From Octopus vulgaris (Eukaryota), in NCBI GenBank assembly GCA_951406725.2, contig OX597832.1:56358001-56422000 (forward strand): 64,000 nucleotides of DNA, given 5' to 3'. Of the stretch, positions 11,826-27,749 are shown piece by piece (within the stretch, counting starts at the first letter, position 1; each line of letters begins with the position of its first letter). A program made the position numbers and the translations under genes. Below the pieces are notes generated by a model. That model saw only the letters and a list, made by a program, of their open reading frames with translations. It was not told the DNA's origin and searched no databases.

Positions 11826-12212
11826 GGCGCAGGAGTGGCTGTGTGGTAAGTAGCTTGCTTAGCAACCACATGGTTCCGGGTTCAGTCCCATTGCGTGGCA
11901 CCTTGGGCAAGTGTCTTCTACTATAGCCTTGGGCCGACCAAAGCCTTGTGAGTGGATTTGGTAGACGGAAACTGAAAGAAGCCCGTCGTATATATGTATA
12001 TATATGCGTGTGTGTGTCTGTTTGTCCCCCTAGCATTGCTTGACAACCGATGCTGGTATGTTTATGTCCCCGTTACCTAGCGGTTCAGCAAAAGAGACCG
12101 ATAGAATAAGTACTGGGTTTACAAAAGAATAAGTCCTGAGGTCGAGTTGCTCGATTAAAGGCAGTGCTCCAGCATGGCCACAGTCAAATGACTGAAACGA
12201 GTAAAGAGAGAG
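11826..12212 (+). mobile_element. tRNA-derived SINE family A (representative; about 25 full or partial copies in the window)
   Basis: A-box-like tggctgtgtggtaag, B-box gggttcagtccc, internal (TA)/(TG) tract, tail ...gactgaaacaagtaaaagag. Other copies: 13686-14108(-), 17945-18103(-), 22169-22560, 23112-23520, 24800-24888(-), 29509-29918(-), 32510-33190, 33277-33668, 34467-34855, 37155-37577(-), 38581-39000(-), 41790-41970, 43154-43563, 46308-46718(-), 47275-47688(-), 48371-48545, 49490-49868(-), 52175-52580, 53735-53940(-), 56906-57010, 58825-59150, 62840-63210. Confidence 0.92.
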
Positions 12213-19424: not shown

Positions 19425-19429
<5 letters not shown>

Positions 19430-19960
19430 GCCCTGATGCAGTACCAGTCAGTGTATCTCATGGCTGCTGATCTTAACTGATTGGAAGTGTTATCATGTAC
19501 ATTGTTTTGTCTTGGTATAAAAGATGGTCTACAGCAAATATTCTGCTCAGTTCTACAGATTTGCTTGTCAGTTGTTTGACCATAACCAGTTGAGCATGTC
19601 CCTTAGTGGCTGATGATATGTGCATCTCTGATCACGAGCCGAAGTAGTGGGGGAGCATCTTAGCCATGTGTTGAGAAGGATACTTTGGAAATATGGGTGT
19701 TTCGTTCAACATCCTTAAACAAGCCTTATTCAGGGACCTTTTGGGCAGGACGGGTTACTTGACCAGAAGAAAATACTAACTGGGCTCCACCTGCAAGGTC
19801 ATGCTCTGTTTATCTTGATATGAGATCACCATGTCACGCACACATGGTTGTGATGCATGTGCCTAGTGTACCCTTATCAGACGGGTAGTCATGATGGGTA
19901 TACTGGGCTTCGTATATTTTACCCCAGTGTCACTTTGATGGCAGGCACTGCTCTCTCACT
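19425..19960. mobile_element. Unclassified ~535-bp element inserted in (TAA)n, possibly a non-LTR retroelement fragment
   Basis: Complex sequence sharply bounded on both sides by pure (AAT)n tracts. Confidence 0.4.
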
Positions 19961-19961
19961 C

Positions 19962-20011
<50 letters not shown>

Positions 20012-20016
<5 letters not shown>

Positions 20017-20112
20017 TCAAAAAATACCTTAGGAACGAGAACCCAGGTTCAAAATTTCCCCAAGACACCTGATGACGGCTGGAGGGTATATCCGCCAAAA
20101 TGTGTTAACAAT
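20012..20112 (+). mobile_element. Tail fragment of the tRNA-hammerhead element (degenerate hammerhead)
   Basis: aacatcaaaaaataccttaggaa...gacacctgatgacggctggagggtatatccgccaaaatgtgttaac matches 27300-27400. Confidence 0.75.
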
Positions 20113-23100
20113 AATATAATGATAATTACTAGTATAATGTCTCAGTTGAGTTAGAGCACAACTGAAAAAGACAAGGAGAGAAAAAGCAATCAATGCATGT
20201 GTGCACATATTAGTGCATCTGTTTGAATTAATCAGCGTAATTCTGCACACATTTGTACCTTTCTAAAGGTACAAAGTCTGAAATTTGGGTGGTGGTCGTC
20301 GACCTCGGTGGAATTTGAACTCAGAGCGTCAAGGTCGATGAAATGCCTCAAAGCATTTTGCCCAGTATGCTAACGATTCTGCCAGCTCACCACCTTAGGC
20401 TTATCTCATAGATACTGATAATAATAATCGTTCGCAAAAATAACAAGCAGAGATTGTGAATAATGCAGTGTTTAACATCTGTTTATCAAGTTCAGCAACA
20501 TGTCAACCAAACATCAAAGGCATGCATCTTTGATAATAGCCTTGGATCAACCAAAGCTGTGAGTAAAATTTGGTAGGCAGCCTGATTCAACACCATCACC
20601 TGGGTCTCTGGTGCCTTTTGCAAAGTCCATTTCATTACAAGTATTTAGACAAGGTCTCCAGTGTGAGGATAACTTCCTCCCATCATCCCACTTCTTTCAT
20701 AGTCCCTGAATAGGATCACAGACCTGGCCCTACCTCCTCTCATAAACCTAAGGGCCCAGGAACCGGGGGTGCATTTGCACTCCCAAAAATTTTGTCAGGG
20801 TGCAAGATTCAATATTGCACCTCCTACTTACCTTTCCCACACTTAGAAATTTGAACTTAAAAATTAATCAGTAAAAAGTTGCTTCAAGTTATGCTTCTTC
20901 ACAAAATAAAAAGAAAGAATTAAAATAAATAATTAAAAAAACACACCTCAAATCCCTAGAAAGATATATTGCTGGACTAAAGCATCCTCAACATTAACAT
21001 TAAAATTTTATATATATATAGATATAGATATATATATAAATTATATATAAATATATCATCATGCATGGGTTGGAAGGTTTGACTGGAGACTGGCAAGCCA
21101 GGAGGCCGCACCAGGCTCCAATCTGATCTGGCAAAGTTTCTACAGCTGGATGCCCTTCCAAACGCCAACTACTCTGAGAGTGTTGTGGGTGCTTTTTGTG
21201 TTCCACCAGCATGGGAGCTAGTCAGGTGGCACTGGCATTGGCCACATTTGGATGGTACTTTTTACATGCCACTTGTACAGGAGGCAGTCTGAGTAGGGGG
21301 AGGGGGCTGGCATCATCCACGTTTGGATGGTCCTTTTTATGAACCACCAGCATGGGGAGCCAGTCAGGTGACTTATCGCGTGCCATCAGCACTGGTAATG
21401 GCCACAACTACAATTTCCATTTGATTTTGATTTACTTGTTTCAGTAGGCCTCCTCAAGCATGGAATGTCGCCCGACGATTCAAAGGGCTGGTTATGTGTC
21501 ACTGGTGAAGACTACGGCTGTGATCTCACTTTCCTTGTCGGGTCTTCTCAATCACAGCATATCTCCAGAGGTCTCGGTCTTTGGTTATTGCTTCGGTGAG
21601 GCCCAACATTTGAAGGTCATGCATCATGGGTCTCCCTCTTCCATGGCTTCTTTCCACTGTTAGAGAGTGAAACATCTTCACACACACACGCATATATATA
21701 TATATATATATGTATATATGTGTGTGTGGAGCACCATTCAAGCGTGATCATTGCCAGTGCCGCCTGACTGGCTCCTGTGCTTGTGGAAGGTTTGATTGGA
21801 AGAAGCACCATTCAAACATGGTCGATCACAGTGCTGGCTGACCAGTCCATTCGAGCATGGTCATTGCCAGTCCCACCTGGCTGGCTCCTGCGCCAGTGGC
21901 ACATAAAAAGCACCATTCAAGTGTGGTCGATGCTAGTACCGCCTGACTGGTCCTCATGCCGGTGGCATGTAAAAGGCACCGACTACACTCTTGGAGTGGT
22001 TGGCGTTAGGAAGAGCATCCAGCTGTAGAAACTTTGCCAGATCAGTCAAACTGTCCAACCCATGCCAGCATGGAAAGCAGCGGTTAAATGACAATGATGA
22101 TGTTAATGGTGTGGTCGTGTACTGGGGTAATAGGAATGGTTGGTGATGATATGCTCGTAAATATTTTTAGGTGCAGGAGTGGCTGTGTGGTAAGTAGCTT
22201 GCTTACCAACCACATGGTTCCAGGTTCAGTCCTACTGCATGGCATCTTGGGCAAGTGTCTCCTACTATAGCCTTGGGCTGACCAAAGCCTTGTGAGTGGA
22301 TTTGGTAGACGGAAACTGAAAGAAGCCCAATGTATGTGTGTGTGTGTGTTTGCATGTTGGTGTTTGTCCCCCACCACCATCGCTTGACAACCGATGTTGG
22401 TGTGTTTACATCCCCGTAAATTAGTGGTTCAGCAAAAGAGACCGATAGAATAAGTACTGGGCTTACAAAGAATAAGTCCTGGGGTCGATTTGTTCAACAA
22501 AAGGCAGTGCTCCAGCATAGCCACAGTCAAATGAGTGAAATAAATAAAAGAATAAAAGAATATATATATACATAAACACACATATATATACATATACATA
22601 TATATATACACTAACACACATATATATATACATATACATATACATATTCCACAGTCATTCCTCGATACTAGTACAATTGATGACCTATTAAACTCTACGA
22701 TCAAGAGCCCTTCACAGTTTTGCTATCCACTTCCTCATTTTCTCTGAATGCCATAATTGGCCCATCATCATCACTGCTATAATCCTTACCACAAGTAAAC
22801 AATAGTAGCATCATCAAGATCAGCATCGGAGTCACTCTTCAATACTAAAACAATTGATGACCTGTTAGAGAGCACAGTCTCAAGTTCTCCACTGTCAGTC
22901 AGACCACTCAAATTCTTCGCAGAATAACACAAGAGGTCCATCATCACCATTCTCGTCCTATTCTGCTGGTATTATCATTACCACTACTACTTCTCCAATT
23001 AGTGAAGAATCACTCCTTTCTTTCTCCAATGTCCACCTCAATCTGAATGTATGCCTGACAACTCCATGATAGATTTTCCAACTTTAAATAAAATAAAATT

Positions 23101-26141: not shown

Positions 26142-27009
26142 TTGTCACTAAAGTGACAAAGGGCATTAATCAGCACCAGCATTGCTAGAAATAACGGTCA
26201 AAACAACTAAATAGCCACATATATAACCTGCCTTTACAGGATTAGCGAAGTGCTGATGTAGTTAAGAGTAAATTTGTGTTTTGTTAAAAAAAAAAACACT
26301 CACACATTTTCAATTCAAATCATTTCGAAATTTTGTTTACACAAAGCAGCAGCAGCGGAACGAATTAAAATCATGCCAGAATGCATATACAAAAGAAAGA
26401 AGTAAGTTTTTGTGTGCAGTCGCCTGCAAAACAAAGGACTGTGCGTGGTGTTGGTTGAACAGTCTGCAGAAAAGGACTTTACCAAGAGGAAGAAGTAGAG
26501 CTGTAACTACTTCACAATTCAACATTGAATTGTGAAGTAGCTACAAGAGGACAGAGTACAAGTAGCAAAGGCAAAGACGTTTTGAACAGGAAACTACAAA
26601 ATCTGCTGATAAAGACATAACTATACATAGACTAAAGATTTCTTTTGTTATACAAGTGAAAGTGAAGGTATGTGGCTTAGCGTTTAGAGGTATACGGCTC
26701 ATGATCTTAAGGTCGCGAGTTCAATTACTGGTGGCATGGTGTGTCCTTGAGCAAGACACTTTATTTCACATTGCTTCAGTTCATTCAGCTGACAAAAATG
26801 AGTAGTTCTATATTTAAGAGATGAGGATTTATGTACATTATTTACATTCAATGGATATTTGTCCTAATCTTGTTTCTTGTTAACACAATGTTTCACCTGA
26901 TATACCCTCCAGCCTTCTTCAGGTGTCTTGGAGAAATTTCGAACCTGGGTATTTTTCGATGTTATTATCATTATTGTTGTTGTTGTTGTTGATATTATTA
27001 TTATTATCG

Positions 27010-27055
<46 letters not shown>

Positions 27056-27061
27056 CATTCA

Positions 27062-27134
27062 GGTCACTGCCTGGAACTGAACTCAGAATCTTGGGGTTAG
27101 TAGCCCGTGCTCTTAATCACTATGCCATATGCCC
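27062..27134 (-). other. tRNA-like SINE head (not a functional tRNA)
   Basis: gggcatatggcatagtgattaagagcacgggctactaaccccaagattctgagttcagttccaggcagtgacc: A- and B-box-like motifs, anticodon-loop-like CT-ACT-AA, imperfect acceptor stem. Confidence 0.65.
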
Positions 27135-27154
27135 ACAGGCATATGGCACAGTGA

Positions 27155-27208
<54 letters not shown>

Positions 27209-27351
27209 TGATGATGATGATGATGATAATAATGATAATAGTAATGATGATGATGACGACGACAACAACGACGACGACAATAATAATAATAATAATAATA
27301 ACATCGAAAAATACCTTAGGAATGGGAACCCAGGTTCGAAATTTCCCCCAA

Positions 27352-27397
27352 GACACCTGATGACGGCTGGAGGGTATATCAGCCGAAACATTGTGTT
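27352..27397 (+). ncRNA. Minimal hammerhead ribozyme motif
   Basis: gacac-CTGATGA-c-ggctg-gagggtatat-cagcc-GAAA-catt-gtgtt. Stems I and II pair; ACAT is plausibly CpG-decayed ACGT. Confidence 0.65.
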
Positions 27398-27749
27398 AAC
27401 AACAAACAAGATGAGGACAAATATCCGTCAAATGTAAATAATGTAAATAACAATAAGTAGTACCTGTAATTCAAAGGGACCAGTATTGTCACATTCTATG
27501 TCGTACTGAATCTCCCTGGAGTGCTCAACCACTTGCACGTTAATCTCAAGAGCAGGCCGTTCCATTGATTGGATCAACTGGAACCCTTGTTGTCATCATA
27601 CCAATGCCATTCATTTCCTGTCTAGCATGGAAACATGTAAGAGTTGGTGACAGGAAAGGCACCTGGCCCATAGAATATCTGCTACAATGAATTCTGTCCG
27701 ACTCATGCAAGCGTGGACAAGGTAGACATTAAAACAAGGACACACTGCA

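Follow-up and report, generated by a model that had tools for sequence, protein, structure and literature searches.

Penelope-like elements of rotifers are inserted as inverted pLTRs with a 31-bp tail on one of them, target duplications of 8-10 bp and palindromes at the junctions (PMC3846280), and the Penelope class has likewise been described with these insertion traits (PMC8557442). In Poseidon of Anolis carolinensis, the open reading frame (ORF) is described as starting at a hammerhead ribozyme, and the tail lies between two internal starts of reverse transcription; in the in vitro work reported there, uncut RNA was used, and the hammerhead needed the protein (PMC11167929).

The feature at 26797-27461 of the window, by which we mean the whole 64-kb stretch of Octopus vulgaris DNA analysed here, is a single insertion composed of two inverted pLTR copies of an autonomous Penelope/Poseidon-type retrotransposon. 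With Poseidon and the Adineta vaga Penelopes, as described in PMC11167929 and PMC3846280, the family shares a single ORF with reverse transcriptase (RT) and C-terminal GIY-YIG domains, no linker zinc finger, a pLTR containing the ORF start, a hammerhead over the first codons, an inverted 5' copy, solo pLTRs, an optional 30-40 nt tail on one end, and junction palindromes. Target duplications are 8-10 bp in those elements and 8-20 bp here. Particular to the octopus pLTR are a tRNA-like head with A and B boxes, a microsatellite linker and a TTTT-poor ORF, whereas the promoters of the Poseidon and Adineta elements are given in these accounts as TATA/Inr-type or unspecified, with no mention of a tRNA-like head.

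Short repeats that combine a polymerase III-type promoter with a downstream type I hammerhead also occur in Schistosoma, as SM-alpha and Sj-alpha; these are described in the available accounts as non-coding, often tandem and freed by cleavage, with no ORF link given, whereas the same layout here is the end of a coding element (PMC6765202, PMC8490949). Small-RNA-derived polymerase III promoters in the terminal repeat and SINE-like solo repeats are shared with TRIMp3 (Cassandra, Helenus and Ajax), but the members of that group are given as LTR elements that are non-autonomous and 311-1263 bp long, whereas the octopus element is a 2.8-kb protein-coding Penelope (PMC10886601). Assignment to TRIMs was rejected, since TRIMp3 are LTR elements with PBS and PPT, a 4-5 bp duplication and no ORF, and the octopus element has 8-20 bp duplications and an ORF. 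Animal non-LTR retrozymes are likewise short hammerhead repeats from Penelope pLTRs; however, their arrays are defined in the source as head-to-tail, and a retrozyme array was rejected for the octopus copies, which lie dispersed as inverted pairs, have target duplications and carry a tRNA-like head (10.64898/2026.07.22.740005).

Organization of the inverted pair

The left copy of the target duplication (26797-26806, plus strand, 10 bp) is identical at 9 of 10 positions to the right copy (27452-27461, plus strand, one mismatch) and shares the last 3 nt of the long arm. Because this single 10-bp duplication frames both arms, the pair represents one insertion. It interrupts an older, unrelated SINE, as the first-pass annotation had proposed: the left part of that SINE occupies 26651-26803 on the plus strand, the right part resumes at about 27459, and the two flanks adjoin each other in 5 other copies.

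On the minus strand, the tRNA-like head reported earlier is present at 27059-27134, with its +1 at 27134 and with both the A box (27127-27117) and the B box (27084-27073) mutated in this copy. An (AAT/AAC)n linker (26966-27058) leads from the head to the ORF start, and the pLTR body of the long arm follows (26804-26965), in which a 16-nt deletion takes out the ATG region. The minimal type I hammerhead of this arm (26882-26927) is damaged: stem II is mismatched, CAUU stands for CGUU, and the minimum free energy (MFE) fold lacks the hammerhead stems. The arm closes with a ~30-nt 3' extension (26804-26833), the 'tail' of Penelope elements (below, tail denotes the pLTR body), which occurs in the minus arm only and is coding, being continuous with the ORF in full-length copies. 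The arm had been recognized, but its limit had been set at 26829, and the extension, absent from the plus arm, reaches 26804.

On the plus strand, the second head (27137-27159) is internally deleted, 12 nt of its start being joined to 11 nt of its end. This collapse had been noted and ascribed to ggca microhomology; the collapse stands, but two extra bases at the join speak against a clean microhomology deletion. An (AAT/GAT/GAC)n linker (27160-27299) and the pLTR body of the short arm (27300-27450), which lacks the extension, follow. The start codon lies at 27322-27324, and the frame is soon broken in the window copy. The linkers between heads and tails, proposed as (AAT)n/(GAT)n, are thus present as (AAT/GAT/AAC)n. 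The opposite orientation of the second copy was correctly seen, but not its distance of 4 bp: the heads meet over a 2-nt centre (27135-27136) on a 12-bp near-palindrome (27130-27141) that spans the head start in the intact element.

The divergent tails of the two arms are 90.7% alike across 118 nt. The third tail, previously placed near 20012-20112, was found at 20011-20114 (plus) as a 3'-truncated pLTR body with a damaged hammerhead. Inside the (AAT)n run of this third copy is a LINE-like 3' fragment (19427-19961), also encountered in L019, L157, L147, L186, L227, L228, L235 and L247; (AAT)n follows it in 14 of 14 matches, some of them duplicate. This LINE-like element, often inside the Penelope linker, looks like a microsatellite-targeting parasite of the Penelope family. 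At least two other abundant tRNA-like SINE families (11826-12212, 22170-22556 and elsewhere; D11-D20) have many inverted copies across the window.

Family size and insertion patterns

Exact 22-23-mers from the head end and from the extension matched 3545 and 3395 times, respectively, and reversed controls 0 times, and the head/tail unit is therefore not a chance arrangement. The exact extension word was kept in 10 of 55 long ends, from which roughly 19,000 long ends can be estimated. The expected genome-wide co-occurrence of head and tail was borne out, a tail following the head in 27 of 29 best-hit loci and in 19 of 30 position-ordered loci. For the 11 of 30 heads without a near tail, a SINE consisting of the head alone was weighed and rejected; no other body common to them was found, and 2 of them keep the first 17-19 nt of the tail. 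In several of these 11, LINE sequence takes over after the (AAT)n.

Two divergent arms were found in 31 of 59 loci, a lower bound since arms more than 420 bp apart were not chained; 28 were long plus short, 3 short plus short and none long plus long. Among 30 loci picked by the extension alone, 20 had a second arm, and 15 of these 20 had a target duplication, called at 8-20 bp, compared with 14 of 380 mismatched flank pairs (3.7%) in the control. The asymmetric arms and the target duplication support the earlier suggestion that a Penelope RT and endonuclease made the insertion. The junction centre of 12 long-plus-short pairs (5 GT, 3 AC and 4 ambiguous) has no strict polarity, which argues against one fixed snap-back order, although twin priming is not thereby proven. 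Direct tandems of two are occasional (L002 and several more), and the pairs are otherwise inverted. A 9-nt unit before the extension (tail positions 135-160) is in frame and variable in copy number, and short arms end within it.

The repeat is the end of a coding Penelope-like element

The position-ordered loci led to the autonomous element that had been sought. The order of the unit, which we regard as practically certain, is head, (AAT)n, ATG, hammerhead within the coding sequence, 30-nt extension, RT, GIY-YIG, stop, about 31 nt and again a head; short and ORF-linked copies form one population, and pairs are asymmetric with one target duplication each. In the position-ordered sample, GIY-YIG-like coding sequence stands directly before the head in L160, L163 and L169 and, inverted, in L158 and L174. 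Searching with this ORF gave 1176 candidates. In 24 of 30 ORF-anchored loci, the query locus included, the head and/or the tail directly follows the ORF stop, and the other 6 break off earlier; in 34 distinct ORF-end/head junctions, about 31 nt separate the stop from the head that follows. At the other end, 24 of 30 loci retrieved with the ORF start have the tail joined directly in front of it. L241 begins at -2 and reads head, linker, tail, extension, 2.3-kb ORF and head, its 3' tail being missing. The element's own terminal repeat is therefore the head-linker-tail unit.

About 35 nt ahead of the hammerhead core, an ATG opens the frame, which L268 and L273 keep uninterrupted across hammerhead and extension. 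The 150-residue translation of L268 is 38% identical to an outside protein, P0122, over 141 aa (E 3e-27), with the match beginning at the stretch encoded by the hammerhead, which indicates that the tail is coding sequence. The RT domain scored over the cut-off (RVT_1, E 1.2e-7). A YVDD motif and a GIY-YIG-like C-terminus were read by eye in broken copies, and the Pfam GIY-YIG model scores the homologue P0122 weakly. The RT-endonuclease linker is short and without the extra cysteine cluster (zinc finger) of Neptune and Nematis. In an RT tree of 35 rows hand-chosen from 240 matches plus two own copies, a set free of named Penelope, Nematis and Hydra references, the own copies group with their closest homologues, P0121-P0123 (100/99), separately from the 7 Neptune rows (100/100) and on the side of an 836-aa Anolis carolinensis protein that was taken as Poseidon by inference. 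The element is thus, with very little doubt, an endonuclease-positive Penelope-like element, and the clade is most likely Penelope/Poseidon.

The first-pass annotation had seen in the unit a separate non-autonomous SINE parasitising a Penelope element, and this part of it does not hold. Solo and ORF-linked copies, compared outside the 60 best-hit loci and the duplicate loci, had no differing column, with net divergences of -0.0002 for the tail (30 vs 59) and 0.0007 for the head (21 vs 34). Because the ORF stop adjoins the head, the tail is the ORF start and solo and linked copies lack a diagnostic difference, the unit is not a separate SINE. Classification as a tRNA-derived SINE family was likewise rejected: an A/B-box head is present, yet the unit belongs to the partner itself, being its repeat and coding for its N-terminus.

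No intact full ORF was found among the copies examined, and copies differ from one another by 10-15%; on these grounds, the family may be dead. Contigs from four runs aligned to L257 cover the pLTR and the ORF start, and starts, ends, strand and level are not resolvable from contigs. The near full-length L245 (1430-1510, oriented) contains four tandem copies (26-27 nt) of the extension/ORF junction, as if reverse transcription had restarted there. Nine loci (L246, L248, L250, L253, L255, L264, L265, L267 and L271) exit the ORF 220-260 nt past the extension into another pLTR piece. This exit site is a template-jump hot spot, perhaps reflecting a protein-binding region or a small internally deleted subfamily.

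A young 781-aa Neptune family and other families with a zinc-finger linker were rejected as partners, as none found in a GIY-YIG profile search (150 of 6136 candidates scored, 60 stretches examined) shares the tail. The rejected Neptune family bears its own U3-A8 hammerhead, and the true partner surfaced in the position-ordered loci only. L091-L100 (e.g., L094:1426-3771, plus) hold a young Neptune-type Penelope in which many frames run through 781 codons unbroken and a hammerhead of the U3-A8 variant lies close to the 3' end; this family has probably been active recently.

Hammerhead ribozyme

The type I hammerhead predicted in the tail is of the minimal Penelope type. In the plus arm (27352-27397), it lies within the coding sequence, with stem I at 27352-27356/27393-27397, CUGAUGA at 27357-27363, GAAA at 27385-27388 and a predicted cut after 27392; its stem III palindrome is broken (CAUU), and all three hammerheads of the window carry mutations. 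CAUU, which had been listed as part of the motif, is indeed present, but it is the decayed state; the commonest is GAAACGUU (72 of 195 copies). The family hammerhead has a stem I of 5 bp, a stem II of 6 bp, an unpaired base after A9 and the palindromic GAAACGUU, and it is fully intact in 37 of 195 copies.

Metazoan Penelope minimal hammerheads, as described in PMC4209133, also have a 5-bp stem I, a 6-bp stem II and an unpaired base after A9; G10.1-C11.1 and the loopless palindromic 15.2-16.2 are common to both, and cleavage as a dimer is predicted there. Nothing of substance differs from the accounts given in that source, and no Rfam model matches the octopus version. A covariance-model scan with Rfam, suggested as a check, accordingly gave no hammerhead call in the window or in 20 loci at E up to 1. 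Stem I/II pairing across copies was confirmed, with 93% of cells paired in 30 copies. No compensatory change was found within the family in the same number of copies, as expected for neutrally decaying copies.

Free-energy folding forms stems I and II in intact copies and in the plus arm. In dimer folding, the MFE structure (-31.4 kcal/mol) differs from the active dimer (-24.3 kcal/mol), and folding therefore does not show activity. Among 61 internally truncated arms, counted without 30 tail best-hit loci, 11 (8 loci) begin at 90-95, near the predicted cut at 93, and none at 69-89, whereas an 8-bp control palindrome at tail 39-46 has 2 of 61 ends. Truncation ends remain frequent up to 110, and a second palindrome sits at the predicted cut. 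The cluster at 90-95 is a hint of hammerhead cleavage that is confounded by this palindrome. Other hammerhead-like motifs, with different stems and in other repeat families, occur at L116:1660 (plus) and L079:26 (plus).

tRNA-like head

Eight head copies align best with genomic tRNA-Arg(TCG) (z 10.3), L018 being collinear with 45 of 70 positions identical; the panel comprised 25 distinct rows of 6 isotypes, and the Arg assignment is provisional. The A box is intact in 83 of 109 heads and the B box in 75 of 109. The cloverleaf has been lost, 1 of 8 heads being called at a relaxed ARAGORN threshold; ARAGORN and Rfam gave no tRNA call in the window, and Rfam gave none in 20 loci at E up to 1. In eight metagenome relatives (35-42% identity), represented by contigs of 1-2.7 kb mostly without ends, neither an A/B-box match nor a convincing hammerhead was found. 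Cleavage by RNase P at +1 seems unlikely, since by eye the acceptor and T stems pair poorly and since ends extend as far as -7.

Copy starts and TTTT scarcity

The 5' ends of 50 arms were distributed as follows: 31 within -10 to +10 of +1, 13 further inside, 1 at -13 and 5 running into the upstream ORF. Inversion junctions on the native palindrome make up 25 of the 31 ends near +1, and plain flank junctions the other 6; 32 of 37 arms reaching the head start stop there. L260, like L241, begins at -2, and template jumps without inversion enter at -6/-7 (L253 and L267).

ORF copies contain 16 TTTT runs in 57,854 bases (0.28/kb vs 1.99 expected), and TTTT is nowhere the commonest state. TTTT is absent (0) from 2355 nt of natural open stretches, with P 0.036 under one codon null and 0.013 under another; these P values are modest and refer to one ancestral sequence, part of the ORF being at one-copy coverage. 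TTTT amounted to 2.1-9.1/kb in 10 Neptune groups and to 5.4/kb (23 in 4248 nt) in four related ORFs on metagenome contigs; 3 of 7 LINE groups are also poor (0.0, 0.86 and 0.89/kb). The ORFs at L233:1-975 (plus) and L239:1675-3021 (plus), which we take to be R4/Dong-like, have 0.0 and 0.89 TTTT per kb. A TATA-like word (TATA[AT]), made of the last codon plus the stop, lies about 28 nt before -6 in 30 of 34 ORF-end/head junctions.

Model of transposition and alternatives

We lean, at slightly better than even confidence, towards a Penelope pLTR pair whose RNA is initiated from a polymerase III promoter of tRNA origin that opens the repeat. The A and B boxes would recruit polymerase III, and the 2.8-kb unit, having no TTTT terminator, would be readable; this step is the least certain. 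An RNA start at the head is favoured by the ends near +1, and polymerase III by the boxes kept on a decayed cloverleaf and by the scarcity of TTTT in the ORF; the palindrome and the TATA-like word at that site and the TTTT-poor LINEs weaken the case. By analogy with Poseidon biochemistry (PMC11167929), the element protein would bind the RNA near the ORF start and nick AT-rich DNA, and reverse transcription would start internally, at one or the other of two RNA positions separated by about 30 nt, giving the long or the short end. When priming occurs in the 5' pLTR, the cDNA would run off the RNA 5' end after about 300 nt, yielding a SINE-like product without a SINE master. Two cDNAs, one per target strand, could then meet via the palindrome at the RNA 5' end to form the head-to-head pair; alternatively, a single cDNA could snap back at this palindrome with the same outcome. 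The hammerhead would cut slowly, as a dimer or helped by the protein, such that most templates stay uncut and a minority of copies begin at the predicted cut. The fuller version, in which polymerase III transcribes the whole 2.8-kb coding unit, TTTT terminators have been purged, run-off pLTRs are SINE mimics and copy ends record hammerhead cleavage in vivo, is put forward tentatively, and we think it has a real but minority chance of being right.

Polymerase III RNA is uncapped, which makes translation of the ORF hard to explain under polymerase III. This difficulty is solved if polymerase II starts the RNA of the same pLTR near -6 from the TATA-like word at the upstream ORF end in tandem arrays, the tRNA-like piece being either the remnant of a SINE or tRNA that was captured or a promoter element acting from downstream. 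Other pLTRs are reported to carry TATA/Inr motifs (PMC3846280), TATA[AT] stands at a fitting distance in the 30 junctions mentioned above, and tandem ORF-head-tail-ORF copies exist (L257 and L259). This polymerase II start nevertheless seems rather unlikely to us: it leaves unaccounted for why the head has matching A and B boxes although its tRNA pairing is gone, and it does not explain the 7-fold shortage of TTTT relative to all 10 other Penelope groups, although some LINEs of the same genome are also TTTT-poor. Moreover, the TATA-like word is also simply a last codon plus stop, and TATA boxes precede many tRNA genes too.

The pile-up of 5' ends might instead come purely from RT snap-back at the palindrome on a longer read-through RNA, with a head that has no promoter role. 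That 25 of the 31 ends near +1 are inversions, that ends also gather at the second palindrome, at the hammerhead cut site, and that Penelope elements are known for palindromes where inverted copies join (PMC3846280) would all fit. The 6 plain flank junctions and L241, L260, L253 and L267 do not, the 8-bp palindrome at tail 39-46 collects few ends, and arrest of 32 of 37 arms at the head start is much for a 5-bp stem; we therefore consider pure snap-back improbable. Least credible, and largely refuted, is a tRNA SINE that is non-autonomous and distinct from the Penelope element, has borrowed its tail from it and is amplified from master copies of its own. Short copies do far outnumber ORF-linked ones (3545 exact matches of the head end vs 742 of the upstream-spacer word) and start at the tRNA +1, and some solo copies could be re-transcribed and re-copied. 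However, the head belongs to the autonomous element at both ends, sequence does not split solo from linked copies, and a solo copy lacks the ORF sequence past the extension that the Poseidon protein is reported to need on its template in vitro (PMC11167929).

Novelty and implications

Three octopus SINEs were reportedly described by Ohshima and Okada in 1994. In Octopus vulgaris, 190 Penelope-like and hundreds of unclassified SINE families have been counted, and the repeat library of that study may hold the tRNA-headed family under either label (PMC13282606). No Penelope with a tRNA-like head was found in the full-text literature, mostly open-access and with most matches judged by their title-level entry, and the available portions of PMC3531059, PMC4758252 and PMC8967140 contain no description of one. 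The Penelope/Poseidon-type anatomy is thus known; the tRNA-like pLTR head, the ends near +1 and the TTTT-poor ORF are unusual.

If the element is driven by polymerase III, a coding retrotransposon would break the usual split between autonomous elements transcribed by polymerase II and short SINEs transcribed by polymerase III, and the question would arise how an uncapped, tRNA-headed RNA with a ribozyme in its first codons is translated. Run-off pLTR copies would then also offer a ready route to the birth of Penelope-dependent SINEs. Even without polymerase III, about 19,000 short 'SINE' insertions, by the rough estimate above, are Penelope ends and a trap for repeat annotation, and SM-alpha-like elements are worth re-examination as Penelope ends. 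The family constitutes a large natural record of the steps of Penelope transposition, including the two start sites, the inverted pairs and the role of the hammerhead.
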